The translations under genes and the position numbers were made by a program. A stretch of DNA of 49,993 nt from Candidatus Woesebacteria bacterium RIFCSPHIGHO2_01_FULL_39_23 (GTDB lineage: Bacteria > Patescibacteriota > Microgenomatia > UBA8517). Every line of letters begins with the position of its first letter. Within the stretch, counting starts at the first letter, position 1. The notes beneath the pieces are model-generated. The model searched no databases. It saw only the letters and a program-made list of their open reading frames with translations, and was not told where the DNA came from. The stretch covers positions 1 to 49,993 of the forward strand of contig MGGH01000005.1 of NCBI GenBank assembly GCA_001792305.1. The letters run 5' to 3'. Positions 5,234 through 49,993 of the stretch are shown here, in pieces.

Positions 5234-5312
5234 AACAGTATAGTTATGAAAAGGTGATTGTCAAGATGAAACCGCTATTCTTCAGGGGTTTGGTGAGGTA
5301 TAATATTAACGC

Positions 5313-8604: not shown

Positions 8605-11226
8605 TTACTTTGGAGCTTCTTCTTCCATTTCAACAGCTTTTTCTAAGGTTGTCACAGCTGCAACACTATCCCCCTTCTTGGTAAACCTCATGAGTATTAC
8701 TCCCTGAGTTGCTCTTCCGAGCTGTGGGATATTTTTTGCTGGAAGCTTTATCACTTGACCGTATTTACTCGTTATTACCATTTGATCGACGATTTGGTCA
8801 ATGAGATCTGCTGAAACAAGATTTCCTGTTTTACTATTTACTATCGCTGCTTTCACTCCTTTTCCACCCCTTCTTTGTTGTGGGAATAAATTGATTCTAG
8901 TGCGCTTGCCCAAGCCGTTTTGTGAGATCGTCAAAATATCTCTGTAAACTTTTTTGCGCTTGTCCGCTGGAATAATTATTTTTTCAGGAAAAACTTCCAT
9001 TGCTATCACTTCATCGCCGCTTGCAAGTTTTATTCCTCGAACTCCAGTGGTAGCTCTGCCCATTGGTCGCACATTATTTTCGGAGAAGCGTATTGATTTA
9101 CCCATTTTGGAGAGAAGCATTACGTTATCATGTCCTGTGGTACTTCGTACGGAGATTAACTTATCTCCTTCAGTAAGCTTGATTGCAATAAGCCCATTTG
9201 TGCGTAAGTTATTATAAGCTTCAAGAGCTGTTTTTTTGATAACACCCTTAACGGTAGCCATTATAAGATACTTTTTAGACTCTCCGTTCATTGGAAAAAT
9301 GGATCTTATTTGTTCATCACGCTCCAGATTAATAAAGTTTACTAAAGCTTGTCCCTTTGACTGTCTTGACGTTTCTGGAATTTCCCAAACTTTATTTCCA
9401 AAAACCCTTCCTCGGTCAGTGAAAAATAGCAAGGTGTCGTGTGTGCTTGCTGAAGCAAAAAGCTCAATTTCATCTTCTTCTTTTGTAGTCATTCCAACAA
9501 CCCCTTTCCCTCCCCTTCTTTGAGCTTTATAAGTGCTCCTTGGAACCCTTTTGATGTAGCCAGTTCTAGTTACAGTAATTAGGACGTCTTCTTTGGCAAC
9601 CAAATCTTCCTCTTTAAGCTCCCCTAGTTTTTGCTTGTAAATTCGGGTTTTTCGGGAATCAGCGAATTTTTCTTTCAAGTCCGTTAGTTCATCGATTGCA
9701 ATATCTAACACTTTTTGTGGGTTATTTAATATATTTAACAATTTGTCGATGAGTTTTTTGACTTCTTCCCACTCGTCTTCTACTTTTTGGCGCTCAAGAG
9801 CTGCAAGACGCCTAAGTTGCATATCGAGGATTGCATTACTTTGAATTTCAGTCAAACCGAATTTATTCATCAACGCATTTTTAGCGTCCTCTTGGGTTTT
9901 ACTCTGTCTTATTGTTTTAATTACAGCATCGAGATTATCAAGGGCGATTTTCAAACCCTCCAAAATATGAGCTCTTTTTTTAGCAGCTGTCAAATCAAAA
10001 ATAGTTCTTCTAGTGATTACTTTCTGCCTGTGTTTTATGTATTCAACGAGAATTTGCTTCAGGTTGACAAGATGCGGAGTGCCATCAACTAGGGCGACAA
10101 AATTTGCAGGAAAAGTGGTCTGGAGCTTTGTGTGCTTATAGAGGTTATTGAGGACCGACTTGGGTTTTGAGTCTCGTTTAAGATCAACCGCTACTCTCAT
10201 TCCATCCTTGTCGGACTCATCCCTAAGGCCCGATATTCCCGTGATTTTTTTGTCTTTTACAAGCTCTGCAATTTTGACTACAAGTTCGGCTTTGTTCACT
10301 TGGTAAGGAATTTCTGAAATTATTATTTGGGTTTTACCCTTTGCACCTTCTATAATTTCTGCTATTCCGCGAACTACTATTTTCCCCCTACCCGATGCAT
10401 AAACTTCAGTCAAGCTTTTTGCGTCGTATATGGCACCGCCTGTTGGAAAATCTGGACCTGGTAATATTTCGGTAAGTTCGTCAACTGTGATGTCGCTTTC
10501 AAACCCCACTTCGGAAGTTGAAAGGTCTTTTTCTTCAATTTTCTTTTCAACACCCTCGGCAATCAAGTTTATTTTTTTAATAAAAAAGTCAGTCTTTTCG
10601 CGCCTTTTTTGCTCTATCTCGACGACCCTACCTTTTTTGATTGTGGTAACTATTGCGCTTACTACTTCACCCAGGTTGTGTGTGGGAATTTTAGTAGCCA
10701 TTCCAACGGCTATTCCTTCTGAACCCATCAGCAGTAGGTTTGGAATAAGGGACGGTAGATACTTTGGCTCTTTAAGGGTTGCATCAAAGTTATCAGCAAA
10801 GTCGACGGTATCTTTGTCGATATCTTTTAAAATTGTCTCGGAGATACTTGAGAGTCTGGCTTCCGTGTACCTCATGGCAGCCGGCGGGTCTCCGTCAACC
10901 GATCCGAAATTTCCCTGGCCCTGTACTAGAGGATATCTGAGAGTAAAGTCCTGAGCCATCCTGACAAGCGCGTCATAAATTGCCATATCACCATGGGGGT
11001 GATATTTTCCAAGCACTTCACCGACTACTTTTGCTGTTTTGGTAAATGCGGATGTGTGTGTGAGCCCCATTGTATGCATCGCGAAAAGAATTCTTCGGTG
11101 CACGGGTTTAAGTCCGTCGCGTATGTCAGGCAGGGCTCTTGCGACAATTACGCTCATGGCGTAATTCAAATAACTTTTTTGGACTTCTTTGCTAATTTCT
11201 GTTGGAAGAACTTTGTTTCCGGGCAT
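8605..11226 (-). CDS. gyrA: DNA gyrase subunit A
   Basis: [10 protein letters not shown] active-site Tyr motif, [17 protein letters not shown], and C-terminal beta-pinwheel repeats. 873 aa. Confidence 0.97.
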
Positions 11227-11230
11227 AAAA

Positions 11231-11258
11231 AAGGCTTAACAAGCCTTGCTTCATTATA
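11231..11258 (-). promoter_or_regulatory. gyrA -10 box plus 5-prime-terminal stem-loop
   Basis: On the minus strand: TATAAT (11258-11253), 5 nt, then hairpin AAGGCTT-gtt-AAGCCTT (11247-11231), then UUUU and the ATG. No SD. Confidence 0.4.
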
Positions 11259-11297
11259 GTATTTTGAAGTTGTGGCTGCAACAAGAAGATATAGATT

Positions 11298-11435: not shown

Positions 11436-11487
11436 GATAACTCACCCCCTCATTACATTCTAAATGGAATTATTAAATCTTTCAAGG

Positions 11488-43958: not shown

Positions 43959-44951
43959 TTAATATTTAATATCGCCGTTATACAAACTTCTAATATCTTT
44001 AATTTTAAATTTGTCCATGACAATCCTGTCTAGGCCCATCCCAAATGCGAACCCCGTTATCTTTTTTGGGCTATGGCCAAAATTCTTTAATATATTCGGA
44101 TGAATCATTCCGCAGCCTAAGATTTCTAGCCATCCTCGTCCCTTGCAGACAGCACAGCCTAATTGTTTGCAAAATGGGCAATCGACATCCAGACCTCCGC
44201 CAGGCTCAACTTCAGGATAATACTTACATCTAAATCTGATCTTTCTATGCTTTCCAAAAAAAGATTTCACAAAATAGTAAAGAGTTCCTTTAAGATCAGC
44301 CATTGAAATACCCTTTTGCAATGCGACTCCTTGAAATTGGTAAAACATTACATTGTTGCTTGCGTTGACCTTTTCATATCTGAATGATTTGCCGGCAACA
44401 GCAATTCGGAAAGGTGGCTTCAGGTTTTCAAGAGCTCGAGATTCTACTGATGAAGTATGGCTTCGAAGCAGTACCTCGGGTTCTTCTATATAAAGAACAT
44501 CCTGAAGGCTTCTTGCCGGGTGGTCTTTGGGTAAATTTAATTTCTCGAAGTTATATTGGTCGGTTTCAATTTCAGGACCTTCCATAATTGAAAAGCCCAA
44601 ATGTTTAAATATTTCAAACATTTCGTTTATGACAATGGTAGTTGGGTGAAGATGTCCGAGTTTGGGTTTAATTCCCGGAATTGTTGGGTCGAAACTGGTT
44701 TTTGTTTTAGGTTTAGAATTTGCGAGCTTATTCTCTATAACGATTTTGATAGTTTGTTTAGTTTCGTTTATCAGTCTGCCTATTTCTTTTCGCTCTTCTA
44801 TTGGAACCTTTTCAATAGATTTTAGGAGCTCATTAATTTTTCCTTTTCTACCAAGATATTCTATTCTGATCGACTCAAGCTCGTGGGTATCGGTGACATC
44901 AGTAATTCTTCCTATTGCAAGATTTTTAATATTAATTATCTCTTCACGCAC
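43959..44951 (-). CDS. pheS: Phenylalanyl-tRNA synthetase alpha subunit
   Basis: GTG start. Class II motifs include HPARSLQDVLY and GFAFGMGLDRIVM. Confidence 0.95.
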   Translation of the reverse strand: MREEIINIKNLAIGRITDVTDTHELESIRIEYLGRKGKINELLKSIEKVPIEERKEIGRLINETKQTIKIVIENKLANSKPKTKTSFDPTIPGIKPKLGHLHPTTIVINEMFEIFKHLGFSIMEGPEIETDQYNFEKLNLPKDHPARSLQDVLYIEEPEVLLRSHTSSVESRALENLKPPFRIAVAGKSFRYEKVNASNNVMFYQFQGVALQKGISMADLKGTLYYFVKSFFGKHRKIRFRCKYYPEVEPGGGLDVDCPFCKQLGCAVCKGRGWLEILGCGMIHPNILKNFGHSPKKITGFAFGMGLDRIVMDKFKIKDIRSLYNGDIKY

Positions 44952-44969
44952 TCTTGAAGTTATTTTATA

Positions 44970-45017
44970 CCAATTTTACTGCTATTTGAACAGTAAAATA
45001 GTAAAATTGGGGATCAT
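44970..45017 (-). promoter_or_regulatory. Alternative-pairing element and 11-codon mini-ORF between rplT and pheS
   Basis: On the minus strand, CCAATTTTACT (45010-45000), ATTTTACTG (44999-44991) and CAGTAAAATTGG (44981-44970) are present. The third segment can pair with either of the first two. A mini-ORF encoding MIPNFTILLFK* lies at 45017-44982. Confidence 0.35.
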
Positions 45018-45023
45018 AAACTC

Positions 45024-45386
45024 TCACGAGAGTTTAGAACTCGAGTTAGAGGAGTATACTCTAGAGACAATTTCTTTAAAAGTATCAGGGTCGGCCACTG
45101 CAATGTCGGCTAAGATTTTGCGGTCGAGGGCGATTTTATTGCTTTTTAGACCTGCGATAAACTTGGAGTAGCTAATCCCGTTTTGTCGGACAGCTGCATT
45201 AAGACGTGTGATCCAAAGTTTTCTTAAATCTCGCTTTCTTAATCTTCTACCAATATATGAATATTGGCCAGCGTGAAGCACTGCTTCTTTGGCGGCGCCA
45301 AATCTTCTTCTTTTGGCATGCTTGAAGCCCTTTGCCATCTCTCTTATTTTTTTATGTTTAGTCTCTATACTTTTAACTCTTGTCAT
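45024..45386 (-). CDS. rplT: 50S ribosomal protein L20
   Basis: [27 protein letters not shown]... is typical of L20. Confidence 0.96.
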
Positions 45387-45387
45387 G

Positions 45388-45582
45388 TTAAAAACCTAGT
45401 GCCTTTTTAATTTTTTTGGCATAAAAACCCTTTATTTCAACAACCCTTTTAAGATTTTTAAGTCTGCTTTTTGACTTACCCGCTTTAAGGTGTCTTCGGA
45501 AAGACTGTCTCCGCAAGACTTTTCCTTTAGGCGTGATTTTAAAGCGTCTAGCTATCGATTTTCTTGTTTTCTGTTTCGGCAT
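45388..45582 (-). CDS. rpmI: 50S ribosomal protein L35
   Basis: [25 protein letters not shown]... is typical of L35. Confidence 0.95.
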
Positions 45583-46114
45583 TTTTTATTTCGCCCCTTT
45601 TCTTTTTTACAGGTGAAATTATAGCAGATAAGTGACGCCCTAACATTTTTGGCTCCATATCTACAACGATTCTTTCTTTAAATCCATTTATTAATTTTTC
45701 AATAAGCTTGTAGCCAAAATTCGTTTTAGCCATGTATCTACCTTTGAAAACTACAGCTATTTTTACTTTGTGCCCAAGGTCGAGAAATTCCCTTACACGG
45801 TTTTTCCTTACTTCAAAATCCGCATCCCCTATAAAAGGTGAAAAGCGTATTTCTTTAAGTTCAGCAGGTTTTGCTTTCTTGCTTTCCTTTTTAAATTTTT
45901 TTTCTTGGCTGTACTTAAATTTTCCAAAATCCACAATTTTGACAACAGGAGGTTTTGCACCTGGTGCAATTTCAACTAGGTCAAGTTTCTCATCTTTTGC
46001 CTTAACTAATGCATCGGAGATAGAAACAATTCCTATTTGTTTTCCACTTGACCCAATAAGCCTTACACTGCTCGCTCTAATATTCTCGTTAAGTTTCCAA
46101 AAAGGTTTGTTCAA
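45548..46114 (-). CDS. infC: Translation initiation factor IF-3
   Basis: NENIRASSVRLIGSSGKQIGIVS...LDLVEI N-domain and a C-domain. There is no ATG start: TTG at 46114, or the in-frame ATT at 46129. The 3-prime end overlaps rpmI by 35 nt. Confidence 0.93.
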   Translation of the reverse strand: MNKPFWKLNENIRASSVRLIGSSGKQIGIVSISDALVKAKDEKLDLVEIAPGAKPPVVKIVDFGKFKYSQEKKFKKESKKAKPAELKEIRFSPFIGDADFEVRKNRVREFLDLGHKVKIAVVFKGRYMAKTNFGYKLIEKLINGFKERIVVDMEPKMLGRHLSAIISPVKKKRGEIKNAETENKKIDS

Positions 46115-46163
46115 AGCTTGATATGAAATGTAACTCTATTGTATTTTACACAAGAAAGCAGCC

Positions 46164-48032
46164 TTAATCAACTATCTTATTTTCAATTTTATTCTTTATT
46201 TCAGAAATTGCCTCGGCCAAGGAATATTGACCCAGGTCTTTGCCATTTCGAAGACGCACGGCAACTTGGTTTTTGCTTTCTTCTTTGTCACCAACTATTA
46301 ACATGTATGGTACTTTTTCTTTTTCGGCGTCACGGATTTTTGACTGCAGTGTTTCATTTCTATCATCTAATTCAGTCCTGATTCCCCTGTTCCCTAACTT
46401 TTTATATACATCTTGTGCATACCTTAAGTTTCTGTCTGTAATCGGAAGAACTTTGGCCTGAACAGGCGCAAGCCAAATAGGGAAAGCCCCCGCAAAGTGT
46501 TCAATAAGTACTCCAAAAAATCTCTCCATAGATCCCAATATTGTTCTATGAATCATAACAGCCTGTTTCTTTTCGCCTTTTTTGTCTACATATTGAACAT
46601 CAAATCCCCTTCCCAGATTTTTAAGATATTTCCATAAATTTTCTTTTGTTTTGAATTTGTCTTTAAAAGTTTTCATTGCCCAAAATTCCTCCAAATCTTC
46701 TTTTGTGCTTTCGGCATATGATGGCTGGTTGAAGTCAAATTGTATAGTACCTAGCTGCCACTCTCGGCCAAGTGAGTCTTTTACTTTAGAATCAATTTTA
46801 GGTCCGTAAAAAACTCCTTCACCCTCATCAATTTTGTATGACAAACTCTCGAGTTCTGCCGCCTTTTTGAGCGAATTTTCAGCAAAATTCCACATCTCAA
46901 GTGTACCCAGATACTTTTCAGGTCTTGTGGCTATATAAACTTGATAATCTGTGAAACCGAAAACTTCATACATTTTTCTGGTGAGTTTAATAACCCCTCT
47001 TACCTCATCAATTACCTGCCCTGGTGTACAGAATATATGAGAATCATCTTGAGTGAAACCCCTAACGCGTATCATTCCGTGTAACGTTCCAGCTCGTTCG
47101 TAGCGGTAAACAGTACCCAACTCACCCATTCGAAAGGGTAATTCGCGATAGCTTCGTGGTCTGTCTTTATAAATTTGAATATGATTAGGACAATTCATAG
47201 GTTTAAGTTGTTCGTCCACTAGGTAATCAGGTGCACTTTCACCTTCGATGTATTGATGAAGCATCGCTGGAAACATTGAATTAATATACTTATTGTAATG
47301 TCGTGAGGTTACAAACATATCCATACTGGCAATATGCGGGGTATAGACTAACTTATAATTTTCATTGGAATGTTCCTTTTTCCAATAAGACTCCACAATG
47401 TTTCTTACGGTGGACAGTTTTGGGTGCCACAGTATTAATCCGGGGCCAGTTAACTGATTTATTGAAAAAAGATCGAGTTCTTTTCCAAGCTTACGATGAT
47501 CTCTTTTTTTGGATTCTTCAAGTTGTTTCAAGTAGTCGTTTAGCTCTTTCTCAGTAGGCCAGCAGGTGCCGTAGATGCGGGTAAGCATTTTGTTTTTTTC
47601 GCTGCCGCGCCAGTAGGCCCCGGCTACCGAAAGCAGCTTGAAATGGGTGAGTTCCTTTGAGGGGTTTTCAACGTGGCCCATTTTGCAAAGATCAAGGAAG
47701 TCACCCGGATTATTGGTCATGAGTTTTTTGCCGCCTTTGGCGAATTCCGTTGCCATCTCTACTTTATATTTGTTGTCCCGAAAGACCCTTTTAGCTTCTG
47801 CAAGAGAGACTTCATTGAACGTAAATTTTTCCCAGGTTGGCAAAATTTGTCGCATTTTTGCTTCGATCTTGGGAAGTTCCTCTTCAGAGATTTTCCATTT
47901 ACCCATATCAAAGTCCTGATAAAATCCGTTTTCAATTGCAGGCCCTATAGCATTGAGAGCACCTGGGTAGAGCAGCTTCACAGAATGCGCCAACAAATGT
48001 GCGCAAGAATGTCTTAAGTTATCTAAATTCAT
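46164..48032 (-). CDS. thrS: Threonyl-tRNA synthetase (no N-terminal TGS domain)
   Basis: It starts at the editing/SAD domain (RHSCAHLLAH), followed by the class II catalytic core and a C-terminal anticodon-binding domain. Confidence 0.95.
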   Translation of the reverse strand: MNLDNLRHSCAHLLAHSVKLLYPGALNAIGPAIENGFYQDFDMGKWKISEEELPKIEAKMRQILPTWEKFTFNEVSLAEAKRVFRDNKYKVEMATEFAKGGKKLMTNNPGDFLDLCKMGHVENPSKELTHFKLLSVAGAYWRGSEKNKMLTRIYGTCWPTEKELNDYLKQLEESKKRDHRKLGKELDLFSINQLTGPGLILWHPKLSTVRNIVESYWKKEHSNENYKLVYTPHIASMDMFVTSRHYNKYINSMFPAMLHQYIEGESAPDYLVDEQLKPMNCPNHIQIYKDRPRSYRELPFRMGELGTVYRYERAGTLHGMIRVRGFTQDDSHIFCTPGQVIDEVRGVIKLTRKMYEVFGFTDYQVYIATRPEKYLGTLEMWNFAENSLKKAAELESLSYKIDEGEGVFYGPKIDSKVKDSLGREWQLGTIQFDFNQPSYAESTKEDLEEFWAMKTFKDKFKTKENLWKYLKNLGRGFDVQYVDKKGEKKQAVMIHRTILGSMERFFGVLIEHFAGAFPIWLAPVQAKVLPITDRNLRYAQDVYKKLGNRGIRTELDDRNETLQSKIRDAEKEKVPYMLIVGDKEESKNQVAVRLRNGKDLGQYSLAEAISEIKNKIENKIVD

Positions 48033-48046
48033 ACTTTTATAATACT

Positions 48047-48071
48047 AAAAAACCTCCCTGTTGAGGAGGTA
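48047..48071 (-). terminator. Intrinsic terminator immediately upstream of the thrS ATG
   Basis: On the minus strand: ACCUCC-ucaacag-GGAGGU followed by a U5 run, ending 14 nt before the thrS start codon. Confidence 0.6.
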
Positions 48072-48095
48072 TAAAAAACCACTAATCTACCTCCC

Positions 48096-48134
48096 CTATT
48101 GGGTTAAAGTAGTAGTGGTTGTTACAAAGTTCAT
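48096..48134 (-). CDS. Candidate thrS leader peptide MNFVTTTTTLTQ
   Basis: ATG AAC TTT GTA ACA ACC ACT ACT ACT TTA ACC CAA TAG, with the ATG 12 nt downstream of a -10 box. Six of the 12 codons are Thr. Confidence 0.5.
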   Translation of the reverse strand: MNFVTTTTTLTQ

Positions 48135-48146
48135 AGTGTTGTATGT

Positions 48147-48175
48147 ATGATATTGCCTGAAACACTTTTTGTCAA
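48147..48175 (-). promoter_or_regulatory. Sigma-70-like promoter of the thrS leader
   Basis: On the minus strand: TTGACA (48175-48170), exactly 17 nt, then TATCAT (48152-48147). Confidence 0.6.
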
Positions 48176-48195
48176 ATATATAGTTGTAGTTTATT

Positions 48196-48213
48196 CTTCG
48201 GGAATTCCCGAAG
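48196..48213. terminator. Perfect 18-nt palindrome downstream of the tRNA genes
   Basis: CTTCGGG-AATT-CCCGAAG lies between tRNA-Ala and the thrS promoter. Confidence 0.5.
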
Positions 48214-48331
48214 CTACTAATAAAGCTAATTCCATAAGAGGAACTATTTTTTCGTTATCTCCAAAAACTTCTACGACACGATTCAACTAAATTCTGTACT
48301 TCCCGCTCACCGGCAATTGTCACAAATCTTG

Positions 48332-48404
48332 TGGACCCGGGGGGATTTGAACCCCCAACCCCTTGACTGCCAGCCAAGTGCTCTAGCCATTGAGCTACAG
48401 GCCC
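48332..48404 (-). tRNA. tRNA-Ala (anticodon GGC)
   Basis: A 73-nt cloverleaf folded by hand: acceptor GGGCCUG/CGGGUCC with the G3:U70 Ala identity pair, anticodon loop CU-GGC-AG, and T-arm GGGGG-UUCAAAU-CCCCC. The CCA end is not encoded. Confidence 0.93.
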
Positions 48405-48414
48405 TTGTGTAGAC

Positions 48415-48489
48415 TGGTGGGCGGTGAGGGATTCGAACCCCCGACTTTTTACACGTCAAGTAAACACTCTGCCACTGAGTTAACCGCCC
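48415..48489 (-). tRNA. tRNA-Val (anticodon GAC), CCA encoded
   Basis: A 75-nt cloverleaf: acceptor GGGCGGU/ACCGCCC, anticodon stem UUUAC/GUAAA with loop UU-GAC-GU, T-loop UUCGAAU, and 3-prime ACCA. Confidence 0.93.
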
Positions 48490-48499
48490 AATGGCATAA

Positions 48500-48528
48500 A
48501 TTTTACTAAATCGTAGAGAGATAATCAA
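48500..48528 (-). promoter_or_regulatory. Promoter of the tRNA-Val/tRNA-Ala pair
   Basis: On the minus strand: TTGATT (48528-48523), 17 nt, TAAAAT (48505-48500), about 10 nt before the tRNA-Val 5-prime end. Confidence 0.45.
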
Positions 48529-48534
48529 TCGAAG

Positions 48535-49164
48535 CTAGCCTGCCGACCTCTGGCTGTAGTGTTCTCCCGATAAAAAGAACTTGCTTCCTTGAGATTTATA
48601 AAGACTCCAGAAGTTCTTTTTATTTGCACGTTTATTTACTGCGTGAAGCCAAACTGCAGCTTTTTCGACTTTTTTCCTGAAACTTTTCAAAAACTCGATT
48701 AACTTTTCAAAAAAAACCACATGATATACTCCAGGCTCGACAGGAACTTGCATGGTGGCTATTTTAAGCTCTTTTGATAAACCTTCAGTAGTTGTAGCCA
48801 AATTTTCAACTTCCTGTTTTAGTACATGAAGTTGTATCTGAAGCTCTCTACCTTTTTTCTCAAGTAGTATTTTTTCTTCTTCGATAAGGGTACGCTCGAG
48901 GTGAACTTGGCTTGCCAGTCTTTCTTGCTCCTGCCTTTTTCCCGACAACACTTGCGAAAATTCCAAAGACTCGCCCGGTATAATTTCTCCGGAGTATTTT
49001 TTGCCGTAACCTTGTCCAAATACTTGGTCCATAAAATCAGAAGACATGCCCCCCAAAAGGTCCTTTTTAAATGAATTCACACTCCCAGTTCCTATGTCTT
49101 TTAAGCTCTCAAGCACATTACGGCTCGCAATTTTTTTGTTGTTTGGTTTGTTTTGGAAATTCAT
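48535..49164 (-). CDS. Hypothetical coiled-coil protein (possibly a Patescibacteria-restricted DUF family)
   Basis: 209-aa ORF with a central heptad-rich segment (EQERLASQVHLERTLIEEEKILLEKKGRELQIQLHVLKQEVENL). I could not assign a function. Confidence 0.6.
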   Translation of the reverse strand: MNFQNKPNNKKIASRNVLESLKDIGTGSVNSFKKDLLGGMSSDFMDQVFGQGYGKKYSGEIIPGESLEFSQVLSGKRQEQERLASQVHLERTLIEEEKILLEKKGRELQIQLHVLKQEVENLATTTEGLSKELKIATMQVPVEPGVYHVVFFEKLIEFLKSFRKKVEKAAVWLHAVNKRANKKNFWSLYKSQGSKFFLSGEHYSQRSAG

Positions 49165-49193
49165 ACAAATATCCTATAACATTTGGTGGAATT

Positions 49194-49993
49194 TTACAAC
49201 AAGGAACTTAATTTTTCAAGTGCCTTTCTCTTTTTGAGAATTTGTATTATACCGGTTAACTGCTTCTCTTCAGGTTTGTCCACTACTTCAGGATTAACGG
49301 ATTTAAAAAACTCTTTAGCCTCGCTGGAGTCAATTTTTATGTCTTCTTTTAGTGCAATTTCAGATAGAATAAAATCGAGTATTATTGAGCTTTTAACAGA
49401 CTCCAGATATTCATTTCTTAAACTTTCAGCCGTTTTTCCGATTGACTGTAGGTATCCCTCAAGAGTAAGCCCCAGTTTTTCAAGGCGAGAAAGAAGTGCG
49501 GAAAGTTTAATGTTTACTTCTTCTTCAAGGAGAACTCTGGGGACTTGTATGTCTTTGTATTTTTCAAGGAGAATTCTTATAACCTGCGACTCTTTTTGTT
49601 CGCGGGTAGGTTCTTTCTTTGTTCTGTCTTTCCCGGGTACCCAAATATCTGCCTTTTTACTGTTCCTTATCAGATCTTTATAATCTCCTAATTGTATTTC
49701 TGGCGCTTCGCATGTTACAGCCTTTACTTCAATGACGCTGTCTTTTTTACCAACTACTTCAAATTTGGGGTACATAACTACCTTGATGTTGTGCTCTTTT
49801 ATTACACTGTAAAAAGCATTTGGAAGGATATTGGAGAGCGCTTGGCTCAAGAGTTTGTCTTCGGAAAGATTTTTTCGGACAATATGTTTTGGTGCTTTTC
49901 CTTTCCTAAATCCCGGAACCTCAAGTTCTTTGGATTCTTTTTCAACAAGTTTATCGATCTCGGACTCAATCAGACTTTGCGGAATCGTAAAAT
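49194..49993 (-). CDS. tig: Trigger factor, short form without PPIase domain (5-prime end outside the window)
   Basis: The reading frame stays open to the window edge. The ribosome-binding signature VPGFRKGKAP lies upstream of the ORF-track start, which is an internal TTG Leu codon. The N-domain runs directly into C-domain-like helices. Confidence 0.88.
   Translation of the reverse strand, partial: FTIPQSLIESEIDKLVEKESKELEVPGFRKGKAPKHIVRKNLSEDKLLSQALSNILPNAFYSVIKEHNIKVVMYPKFEVVGKKDSVIEVKAVTCEAPEIQLGDYKDLIRNSKKADIWVPGKDRTKKEPTREQKESQVIRILLEKYKDIQVPRVLLEEEVNIKLSALLSRLEKLGLTLEGYLQSIGKTAESLRNEYLESVKSSIILDFILSEIALKEDIKIDSSEAKEFFKSVNPEVVDKPEEKQLTGIIQILKKRKALEKLSSLL

Follow-up and report, generated by a model that had tools for sequence, protein, structure and literature searches.

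A candidate threonine leader-peptide attenuator in front of thrS in a Microgenomates bacterium

Two modes of control are usually illustrated with the threonyl-tRNA synthetase gene, thrS: the ThrRS operator of Escherichia coli and the T-box of Firmicutes. How the same gene might be controlled in bacteria of the Candidate Phyla Radiation (CPR) is the question raised by a 49,993-nt stretch of DNA (the window) from the Microgenomates member “Ca. Woesebacteria” bacterium RIFCSPHIGHO2_01_FULL_39_23, in which a short ORF rich in Thr codons and a terminator-like hairpin directly precede thrS. A preliminary description of this region had listed a promoter, a leader ORF, alternative hairpins and a terminator, and had read them together as an attenuator. 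All of these elements are indeed present on the minus strand, directly upstream of thrS and with coordinates exact to the base (Table 1). We consider the region to be a classical ribosome-mediated (leader-peptide) transcription attenuator, with a probability of about 0.85, and we infer this function from several kinds of observation: the sequence elements themselves, the hierarchy of helix energies, a switch reproduced in silico, the conservation and Thr specificity of the element in relatives, and the co-variation of antiterminator and terminator.

Within the CPR, the host is Gottesmanbacteria-like. The product of thrS has the domains tRNA_SAD, tRNA-synt_2b (the class II core) and HGTP_anticodon (anticodon binding), according to Pfam. 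The gene is the first of a cluster with the order thrS-infC-rpmI-rplT-pheS-pheT, and control by the attenuator probably extends over the whole thrS-infC-rpmI-rplT-pheST cluster. Genes for tRNA-Val and tRNA-Ala lie directly upstream of the leader and thrS. Half of the 12 sense codons of the leader ORF specify Thr, five of them consecutively and a sixth as codon 11 (48102-48104). As Thr accounts for 6.1% of the codons in the window, a run of five is expected with a probability of ~1e-6 per position, and across both strands of the 50-kb window no other mini-ORF with an amino-acid run lies beside a terminator. Six independent assemblies of the same strain from metagenomes have an identical leader sequence, apart from a single difference in the 371 nt compared, a G-to-A change in the promoter spacer (48163) of one assembly. 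The leader is therefore not an assembly artefact; coming from one strain, the six assemblies are uninformative on substitutions.

Table 1. Features of the thrS leader region, with positions in the window
Feature	Positions	Strand	Remarks
-35 hexamer TTGACA	48170..48175	-	Candidate leader promoter; consensus match
-10 hexamer TATCAT	48147..48152	-	17-nt spacer from TTGACA; ends 12 nt before leader ATG
Leader peptide ORF MNFVTTTTTLTQ*	48096..48134	-	12 codons plus TAG; ATG at 48134, stop at 48098-48096
Five consecutive Thr codons (ACA ACC ACU ACU ACU)	48108..48122	-	Codons 5-9; proposed ribosome stalling site
Region 1	48106..48120	-	5' arm of 1:2 hairpin, overlapping the Thr codons; in MFE and centroid folds
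Region 2	48077..48096	-	Partner of region 1, or of region 3 via 48096-48088
U6 run	48073..48078	-	At the end of and just past the 1:2 hairpin; first two U paired in the hairpin
Region 3 (UACCUCCUC)	48063..48071	-	3' strand of antiterminator and 5' arm of terminator
Region 4 (GGGAGGU, 48058-48052) and U5 (48051-48047)	48047..48058	-	Intrinsic terminator with region 3
thrS	46164..48032	-	622 aa; ATG at 48032; gene proposed to be regulated

The candidate promoter matches the consensus at 11 of 12 positions and is the top promoter-like match in the 6 kb scanned. Because its -10 hexamer ends so close to the leader ATG, the predicted 5' untranslated region would be only ~5 to 6 nt long. Both promoter boxes are conserved in the Woesebacteria homologue L048, and the sequence further upstream is unrelated. 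Similar promoters end 6 to 13 nt before most of the related leader ATGs, and in most related leaders the -10 ends 6 to 9 nt before the ATG, which would make their mRNAs leaderless or almost leaderless; 18 of the 26 leaders have AAN as their second codon. The leader ORF in the window lacks a Shine-Dalgarno sequence and would thus have to be translated in an SD-independent or near-leaderless manner, which is plausible for this genome, where Shine-Dalgarno sequences are rare.

Three mutually exclusive helices can form in the leader. Within the Thr codons, the segment AACCACUA (48120-48113) finds its partner in UAGUGGUU (48084-48077); the two belong to the longer hairpin between regions 1 and 2 (48120-48106 with 48096-48077), and region 2 begins with the G of the leader stop codon. 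In the antiterminator, GGGGAGGUA (48096-48088) pairs with UACCUCCUC over 9 bp including one G-U, while the terminator joins ACCUCCU (48070-48064) to GGGAGGU across the loop CAACA and is followed by U5, leaving 14 nt, unstructured in the folds, between the U5 and the thrS ATG. No other terminator-like site in this stretch is as clean. The helix energies are -19.1 (1:2), -12.4 (2:3) and -9.4 (3:4) kcal/mol, the order required of an attenuator, with the antiterminator more stable than the terminator. The minimum free energy fold of the leader consists of the 1:2 hairpin and the terminator. The leader folds better than all of 200 dinucleotide shuffles (z = -3.1), and 97% of shuffles give a weaker 2:3 duplex. 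Where the 1:2 hairpin ends, the U6 run is probably a pause site for RNA polymerase, or a first terminator if the leader is untranslated; a U run behind the 1:2 hairpin is also present in L048, L016, L024, L025 and L054.

Folding of the leader under constraints that mimic ribosome footprints yielded the switch that the proposed attenuation geometry calls for. The terminator had a pair probability of 0.92 whether the ribosome was absent or positioned at the stop codon, in agreement with the earlier proposal that termination is favoured in these two cases. For each of Thr codons 5 to 9 placed in the A site, the terminator dropped to at most 0.012 and the antiterminator rose to ~0.98.

From these elements we infer a course of events that would run from the start of transcription and translation of the leader, through polymerase pausing and a response to the charging of tRNA(Thr), to premature termination. 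Transcription would start ~6 to 7 nt past TATCAT and give an RNA with almost no 5' untranslated region, the first feature of which is the MNFVTTTTTLTQ ORF. With Thr-tRNA(Thr) in good supply, the ribosome would reach the TAG, its footprint would cover the start of region 2, and region 3 would be left to pair with region 4, upon which RNA polymerase would terminate at the U tract, 14 nt ahead of thrS. If the RNA is not translated, the Thr codons of region 1 would pair with region 2, and the terminator would again form; the U6 run would probably delay the polymerase long enough for a ribosome to arrive, or end transcription at this point. Under a shortage of charged tRNA(Thr), a ribosome stalled on Thr codons 5 to 9 would mask region 1 and set region 2 free to form the 9-bp antiterminator with region 3, so that no terminator is made and thrS is transcribed. 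The additional ThrRS would restore charging, closing a feedback loop.

The preliminary description had asked for Thr-run mini-ORFs with terminators in related genomes, and these were found: of 108 related thrS loci, about 25 have such an ORF, homologous or analogous to the one in the window and in each case on the strand of thrS, among them one that precedes thrC-thrS, and some loci carry Thr leaders in tandem. A run of at least four Thr is encoded by 25 of 6304 ATG mini-ORFs from 63 related sequences (830 kb, both strands searched); every one of the 25 has the orientation of thrS, and nearly all are upstream of it. Within 400 nt upstream of thrS, a Thr-dense mini-ORF with a terminator occurs in 15 of 108 unique loci; the best of the other amino acids reaches 2 of 108 under the same definition, and the opposite strand gives 0. 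An intrinsic terminator stands behind the leader stop codon in 19 of the 20 leader loci examined. The combination of an in-frame ATG, a Thr run and a stop positioned precisely where region 2 begins is found again in subfamilies of divergent sequence. The leader peptide is unconserved beyond the Thr run and the helix-forming nucleotides. An exact-pattern scan of the genome contigs with the conserved core GGGAGGTAGANNAGTGGTTT returned only the L048 contig and chance matches.

The alternative helices are kept in these relatives across differing terminator sequences. Alignment of 18 leaders with MAFFT followed by RNAalifold recovered just five terminator pairs, the short helices being out of register, and for this reason shuffle tests and a comparison of cognate with noncognate duplexes were used instead. 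The terminator cores vary by subfamily (CCUCC, CCCUCC, CCCGC, CUCCCC), and region 2 tracks them: over 19 loci, the mean energy of the duplex between regions 2 and 3 was -17.5 kcal/mol for cognate pairs and -12.35 kcal/mol for noncognate pairs, and none of 20000 permutations reached the cognate mean. Across leaders, the 2:3 duplex had a mean z of -3.0 and the 1:2 duplex one of -2.3. In the constraint-folding test, 15 of the 19 leaders, which represent roughly eight subfamilies and are not fully independent, lost the terminator upon a Thr stall and kept it when the ribosome stood at the stop codon, compared with an expectation of 1.4 from dinucleotide shuffles of the inter-region; the remaining four did not switch in this simple form of the test. 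Between the window and L048, all changes in the Thr run fall on wobble positions, which, like the AAN second codons and the shared frame and stop position, indirectly favours translation of the leader. The two leaders are 79% identical at the nucleotide level and the two thrS coding sequences only 60%, suggesting that the attenuator may move between lineages as a cassette.

Could the hairpin in front of thrS be an ordinary terminator that closes a small transcription unit or stops read-through from the tRNA-Val and tRNA-Ala genes, with thrS transcribed leaderless from a promoter of its own and the Thr-run ORF devoid of any regulatory role? A -10-like hexamer, TATTAT, does lie at 48044-48039, 6 nt before the thrS ATG, where it could drive thrS transcription that is leaderless and independent of the attenuator; such hexamers are enriched 5 to 13 nt before start codons in the window, the window and L048 hardly differ in the stretch from terminator to ATG, and the tRNA genes are directly upstream. 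The -35 region of this promoter is poor (3/6), however, and there is no extended -10, while the 11/12 promoter sits between the tRNAs and the leader with only the leader and thrS to transcribe. Nor would an ordinary terminator explain why Thr-specific and strand-specific mini-ORFs stand upstream of thrS in many lineages, why antiterminator complementarity tracks each terminator, or why the U tract at L054 ends just 7 nt before the next gene, thrC. We regard this explanation as quite unlikely. A small unit of another kind, encoding a functional small peptide or a small RNA that is next to thrS by coincidence, would suit the strong promoter and strong terminator that delimit an RNA of ~95 nt. 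It is extremely unlikely given that the peptide is conserved in relatives only in its Thr run and helix nucleotides, that the unit lies on the same strand as, and nearly always upstream of, thrS or thrC, and that a stand-alone gene needs no antiterminator overlapping its own terminator. We also rejected a reading of the opposite strand, in which the Thr run becomes a Val run within a plus-strand ORF (48061-48150); there is no downstream gene on the plus strand, and no opposite-strand mini-ORF with a terminator was found across the relatives.

A different matter is whether the attenuator is real but its sensor is not the ribosome, in which case uncharged tRNA(Thr), as in a T-box, or ThrRS, as at the E. 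coli operator, would be sensed directly and the ORF would be incidental. E. coli thrS is autoregulated by ThrRS (mentioned in PMC2965389), and in several of the nearest relatives by ThrRS the same position is taken by a T-box-like leader that has a specifier hairpin with ACC and a UGGRACC bulge. The window leader itself bears none of these marks. A cmscan of positions 44000-49993 at E ≤ 10 returned the two tRNAs (tRNA-Ala and tRNA-Val) and noise, with no T-box, Thr_leader, Phe_leader or other family to explain the leader. On reading the leader and its folds, we found no UGGNACC motif, no specifier hairpin and no 7-nt loop resembling an NGU anticodon of the E. coli-type operator; the loops are AAUA and CAACA, neither of which is like the anticodon loop of tRNA(Thr). 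Together with the ATG, Thr run and stop position shared by divergent subfamilies, this makes direct sensing by tRNA or ThrRS very unlikely for the window leader.

Read as a leader-peptide attenuator, the region has a close functional counterpart in the pheST (pheM) attenuator of E. coli, which sits in the same conserved thrS-infC-rpmI-rplT-pheST cluster. Both precede an aminoacyl-tRNA synthetase gene, carry codons for the amino acid that the enzyme charges, and use a 1:2 / 2:3 / 3:4 helix scheme ending in an intrinsic terminator. Unlike pheST, the attenuator in the window stands before thrS and has Thr rather than Phe codons, the rplT-pheS spacer of 72 nt holds no such ORF and thus no Phe leader precedes pheS, sequence similarity is lacking, Rfam Phe_leader (RF01859) giving no match, and the leader mRNA would be nearly leaderless without a Shine-Dalgarno sequence. 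The thrL element of Proteobacteria (Thr_leader, RF00506) controls the biosynthetic thrABC operon and contains Ile codons as well. With the window leader, as proposed here, it shares a Thr-rich peptide, the sensing of charged tRNA(Thr) by ribosome stalling and the choice between terminator and antiterminator; here, the controlled gene encodes a synthetase and the run consists purely of five Thr codons. Judging by the lack of a match at E ≤ 10, the thrS leader is an analogue of Thr_leader and not a detectable homologue.

The pheST attenuator has been cited as a precedent (PMC1262725), and classical attenuators are known or predicted for pheST, for trpS and leuS in Streptomyces and for hisS paralogues in Bacillus (PMC1262725, PMC2965389), the feature common to the actinobacterial and Bacillus cases being a short ORF with cognate codons upstream of the synthetase gene. 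The earlier remark that no Thr leader peptide before thrS was known to its author needs qualification, as a Thr-dependent leader peptide named “thrL”, the only earlier suggestion that we found, has already been proposed upstream of thrS in Streptomyces lividans, where attenuators were predicted for alaS, thrS, trpS and leuS and the leaders are leaderless (PMC8079986). The S. lividans peptide (MKRVRPFLETTPGFVPAR) has only two Thr codons, and its authors found no U-rich terminator (PMC8079986), whereas in the window the Thr codons number five in a row, the terminator is canonical, the antiterminator well supported and the element conserved across many CPR lineages; the evidence for the S. lividans proposal is therefore the weaker. 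The T-box of Firmicutes thrS has the same logic and target, in that low charging of tRNA(Thr) leads to antitermination and more ThrRS. The proposed sensor in the window is the translating ribosome and not direct binding of tRNA. A T-box is defined by a specifier codon in Stem I and by a 7-nt UGGN-ACC bulge in the antiterminator that pairs with the 3' end of the tRNA (PMC7583486), and the window leader has neither of these features of RF00230.

Such features do occur elsewhere among the related thrS loci. A divergent T-box-like leader, composed of a hairpin with an ACC specifier and a 7-nt UGGRACC bulge, is present at the orthologous position before thrS at about 18 other loci, some of which belong to the closest ThrRS relatives of the window. 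Most of these closest relatives (65 to 79% identity) lack a Thr leader and have either the T-box-like leader or nothing detectable, which indicates that the element is not stably inherited; Thr leader, T-box-like leader and neither are all found among ThrRS proteins that are at least 73% identical. Neither a T-box nor a Thr_leader emerged from Rfam searches of the related loci, whether run at the gathering threshold or at E ≤ 5, and a 221-nt stretch of L077 had no Rfam match. No tRNA(Thr) gene, which was sought for its discriminator base as a test of the UGGR bulge, is present in any of 60 loci. A tRNA-Val(GAC) gene is syntenic in most of the 60.

At orthologous genes, leader peptides are known to have taken the place of a T-box (PMC2965389). 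It is tempting to assume, at somewhat less than even odds, that thrS in Microgenomates (CPR/Patescibacteria) is under two interchangeable and rapidly turning over attenuators, one being the near-leaderless Thr leader peptide and the other an undescribed class of T-box. In the same tentative reading, that class would combine an intrinsic terminator with a canonical discriminator bulge (UGGR-ACC) and a specifier hairpin that is ultrashort and carries ACC in the loop. Among translational T-boxes, cases with an ultrashort Stem I have been described, whereas a long Stem I is generally required in transcriptional ones (PMC7583486). Both attenuators appear to monitor mainly the tRNA(Thr) that reads ACY codons.

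The mechanism proposed for the window leader is a textbook one, apparently not yet described for thrS in such a form or for CPR bacteria, and our literature search found no publication joining CPR or Patescibacteria with leader peptides, attenuation or T-boxes. A Thr-leader attenuator before thrS would be a third solution for the control of the same gene, in a host from an uncultivated radiation whose gene regulation is almost unknown. As attenuation of this kind needs a ribosome close behind RNA polymerase, it would imply that transcription and translation are coupled in these organisms of reduced genome. The alternation with a T-box-like leader would offer a compact natural system for the replacement of tRNA-sensing by ribosome-sensing attenuators and vice versa, and the leaders, being short and modular, are amenable to direct tests in E. 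coli or in the PURE system without cultivation of their hosts. If the two-attenuator reading is true, it would provide the first evidence of coupling-dependent attenuation in CPR bacteria and would widen the known range of T-box designs.

Every coordinate in the preliminary description proved exact when the minus strand upstream of thrS was re-read. The 622-aa ORF shows three domains of a threonyl-tRNA synthetase (ThrRS), namely tRNA_SAD, the class II core, and HGTP anticodon binding, and is followed, in order, by infC, rpmI, rplT, pheS, and pheT. The sequence TTGACA-17-TATCAT, from which leader transcription would start, is the top promoter match within the 6 kb scanned. Threonine accounts for 6.1% of the codons in window genes, so that the chance of five consecutive Thr codons, as in the predicted leader ORF, is ~1e-6 per position. 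A scan of both strands over all 50 kb of the window showed a mini-ORF carrying an amino-acid run ahead of a terminator-like site here and nowhere else. Folding of the leader surpasses that of dinucleotide shuffles by 3.1 SD. Six metagenome assemblies, independent but of the same strain, all carry the leader unaltered, the sole change in the 371 nt compared being one promoter-spacer base in one assembly.

Features of the thrS leader in the window, and copies of the second, T-box-like leader in related thrS loci (L handles; coordinates within each locus sequence)
Feature	Coordinates	Strand	Remarks
tRNA-Val(GAC)	48489-48415	minus	
tRNA-Ala(GGC)	48404-48331	minus	
Promoter-like site	TTGACA 48175-48170; TATCAT 48152-48147	minus	17-nt spacer; 11/12 matches
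Leader ORF, MNFVTTTTTLTQ and stop	48134-48096	minus	ATG 12 nt past TATCAT; ATG AAC TTT GTA ACA ACC ACT ACT ACT TTA ACC CAA TAG
Long hairpin, then U6	U6 48078-48073	minus	ahead of second hairpin
Second hairpin, ACCUCCU-CAACA-GGGAGGU, then U5	48070-48047	minus	
thrS	48032-46164	minus	622 aa; ATG 14 nt past U5 tract
Helix 1:2	48120-48106 with 48096-48077	minus	-19.1 kcal/mol (helix alone)
Helix 2:3, antiterminator	48096-48088 with 48071-48063	minus	-12.4 kcal/mol (helix alone)
Helix 3:4, terminator	48070-48064 with 48058-48052	minus	-9.4 kcal/mol (helix alone)
Second leader copies	L001:2135-2279, L003:2323-2462, L004:2351-2479, L007:1011-1156		in alignment of T-box-like leaders
Second leader copies	L008:2314-2463, L014:2329-2467, L073:1332-1468, L077:1355-1474, about 10 more		in alignment of T-box-like leaders

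The energies of the three helices formed by leader regions 1 to 4 fall in the order that a trp-type attenuator requires. The nascent RNA, taken as far as the U tract, was folded by partition function with ribosome footprints, and also in an MFE version; this gave a terminator pair probability of 0.92 and an antiterminator probability of 0.00 for the ribosome-free RNA, and the same values with a ribosome at the TAG codon. For each of Thr codons 5 to 9 in the A site, the terminator was lost (≤0.012) and the antiterminator formed (~0.98), as anticipated in the preliminary description. The first base of region 2 is the G of the leader stop codon, and a terminating ribosome would therefore physically cover the antiterminator strand. 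The U6 run ending the 1:2 hairpin probably acts as a polymerase pause that synchronizes transcription with the ribosome, or as a first terminator if the leader is untranslated.

A search of relatives for Thr-run mini-ORFs ahead of thrS had been suggested, and among the loci gathered (62 from species-representative genomes and 80 from metagenomes) such ORFs recur in Roizman-, Woese-, and Gottesmanbacteria as well as in other Patescibacteria. They include MNLVTTTTTVAL, MNKYILINTTTTFSC, MKNNIVITTTTDSC, MKKEIKFTTTTIS, MKLIALNSTTTTIRQ, MKQSSLQTTTTTNP, MFCHRCTTTTTTTIPAGV, MINAKILNCTTTTPK, MKIQNVIVCTCTTPV, and MKNSLCQTTTVTTSGWSGF. At least four consecutive Thr codons occur in 25 of 6304 ATG mini-ORFs (830 kb, both strands), and all 25 lie on the thrS strand, nearly all of them upstream of thrS. 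When only the 400 nt ahead of thrS are considered, 15 of 108 unique loci have a Thr-dense mini-ORF with a terminator after it; the next best amino acid reaches 2, and the opposite strand yields zero such combinations.

The architecture is shared: region 1 consists of the Thr codons, the stop codon stands 0 to 3 nt ahead of region 2, and region 2 has two complementary partners throughout, the Thr codons and the terminator 5' arm. Of 20 leaders, 19 have a canonical terminator 3' of the stop codon, and under constraint folding 15 of 19 lost the terminator on a Thr stall and kept it with a ribosome at the stop codon, while shuffles predict 1.4. Terminator cores vary by subfamily (CCUCC, CCCUCC, CCCGC, CUCCCC) and region 2 changes accordingly; cognate 2:3 duplexes average -17.5 kcal/mol versus -12.35 kcal/mol for non-cognate ones, the cognate mean being reached in 0 of 20,000 permutations. 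The leader of L054 lies ahead of threonine synthase (thrC), with thrS next, that of L019 ahead of a 752-aa ThrRS with an N-terminal fusion to a YbaK-type tRNA_edit domain (L019:324-2582), and several loci have two tandem Thr leaders, all of which fits Thr specificity.

The tandem leaders, each with its own terminator, are found at L010:597-834, L025:621-870, L060:515-782, and L006:307-546. In the first three they precede a ~250-aa unknown protein and a creatininase-family protein, both ahead of thrS, and in L006 a 105-aa ORF of unknown family and then thrS; these genes may have a threonine-related role. At L017:2372-2460 and L123:1364-1450 the ORFs are intact (MKNNISLLTTTTFS, MKINFIATTTTTFSC) while the terminator hairpin is gone and the U run is left, so that these look like decayed or remodelled attenuators. 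The tRNA-Val(GAC) gene is syntenic upstream of thrS in most of the clade (the window, L016:2187-2261, L033:2246-2322, L056:2247-2321). In L016, L017, and L019 the leader ATG follows a tRNA 3' end by 7 to 14 nt with no promoter between, and the leader would therefore be co-transcribed and freed by tRNA processing. In rplT-pheS intervals, L001:5222-5344 gives a weak Rfam Phe_leader match (34 bits, E 0.03, under the gathering score) with a mini-ORF, MTTQRYFSFYFFTSPSGESLGA (4 Phe, 2 Tyr), then a GC hairpin and U run; this could be a pheM-like attenuator of a Gottesmanbacteria genome. The rplT-pheS spacer of the window (72 nt, 44952-45023) holds no counterpart. L006:4018-4065 has a mini-ORF with (ACT)5, MNENSTTTTTFQSYF, and a hairpin after it lacking a U tract.

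A Shine-Dalgarno-like motif, leniently defined, precedes only 9 of 44 window genes, and -10-like hexamers are enriched 5 to 13 nt ahead of start codons (e.g., 5295-5312, 11459-11487, 44952-44975), a pattern pointing to many mRNAs in this genome with a very short leader or none. The lack of such a motif before the leader ORF and thrS is thus normal here, and the GGAGG strings inside the attenuator are structural. In most related leaders the ATG comes 6 to 9 nt after the end of a TTGACA-16/17-TATAAT-like promoter, and in the window 12 nt, a distance implying probable leaderless or near-leaderless leader mRNAs; the second codon is AAN in 18 of 26 leaders versus 16 of 44 window genes. Elsewhere in the window, a TATAAT, a hairpin (AAGGCUU-GUU-AAGCCUU), and UUUU abut the gyrA ATG (11231-11262, minus strand; gyrA 8605-11226).

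Taken together, the energies, the in silico switch, and the comparative data support the interpretation first offered, classical ribosome-mediated attenuation of thrS responding to Thr-tRNA charging, to which we assign a probability of about 85%. The hairpin could instead be an ordinary terminator, with thrS expressed from a separate weak promoter: a TATTAT (48039-48044, minus strand), conserved in L048, stands 6 nt before the thrS ATG. Its -35 (TCCTCA) matches at only 3 of 6 positions, however, and the comparative data would be left unexplained; the site may be an additional basal promoter, from which leaderless thrS mRNA would be made independently of the attenuator. For sensing of tRNA or of ThrRS by the leader, the motifs needed are missing, neither a specifier hairpin nor UGGNACC being found in the window leader, and this reading is therefore not supported; a stand-alone peptide or sRNA gene is not supported either, because conservation is limited to the Thr run and helix-forming bases.

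ThrRS relatives assign the window to the Microgenomates, within the Candidate Phyla Radiation (CPR), nearest to “Candidatus Gottesmanbacteria”. The closest leader is that of a Woesebacteria genome (L048:2338-2482), 79% identical to 48033-48175 (-35 box through to the thrS ATG), with Thr-run differences confined to wobble positions; 5' of the -35 box the similarity ceases. The thrS genes share 60% nucleotide and 53% amino acid identity, and ThrRS relatives nearer than L048 carry other leaders. This pattern points to either very strong constraint or lateral transfer of an attenuator cassette.

Where ThrRS is 65 to 79% identical to that of the window, the Thr leader is absent in most cases; the homologous attenuator of L074 contains just two Thr codons (MEVKNKSIFTTASLR), and no obvious leader was seen in L069, L070, and L075/L076. 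A different conserved leader is present in L001, L003, L004/L071, L007, L008, L073, L077/L078, and ~10 further loci. Alignment of 15 copies with RNAalifold revealed a hairpin with a co-varying 4-bp stem, whose loop (ACUCACCAAC) holds the Thr codon ACC and then A, an invariant AAUUAAG, two co-varying helices flanking a 7-nt bulge (UGGAACC or UGGGACC), and an intrinsic terminator at the end, with compensatory changes in 13 of 14 predicted pairs. The T-box discriminator is defined by a 7-nt bulge, UGGN plus ACC, next to helix A1 (PMC7583486). Searches with the Rfam T-box model missed these leaders whatever threshold was tried; they may be transcriptional T-boxes with an ultrashort Stem I. Among the 108 unique loci, ~25 have the Thr leader, ~18 the T-box-like leader, and ~65 neither, so orthologous thrS genes in this clade appear to have a ribosome-sensed leader, a tRNA-sensed one, or none. 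T-box and leader-peptide switches at one gene are a documented pattern (PMC2965389). A plausible further reading, which we rate a little below even odds, is that two Thr sensors replace each other rapidly across the lineage, one of them a new T-box variant acting on transcription.

The window element works like the attenuators of E. coli pheST (pheM) and of the thr operon (thrL), although it is not a detectable member of Rfam Phe_leader or Thr_leader. Ahead of synthetase genes, attenuators were earlier predicted in Streptomyces (trpS and leuS; PMC1262725) and in Bacillus (hisS paralogues; PMC2965389), and in S. lividans they were proposed from RNA-seq for alaS, trpS, leuS, and thrS (PMC8079986). 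The preliminary statement that no Thr leader peptide was known before thrS must accordingly be narrowed: thrL has been proposed there, with two Thr codons only and no U-rich terminator seen by the authors (PMC8079986). Among the papers searched, none connected CPR or Patescibacteria to leader-peptide attenuation or T-boxes. The element would represent a well-formed attenuator of thrS that is based on a Thr leader peptide and is conserved in a phylum for which such regulation had not been described.
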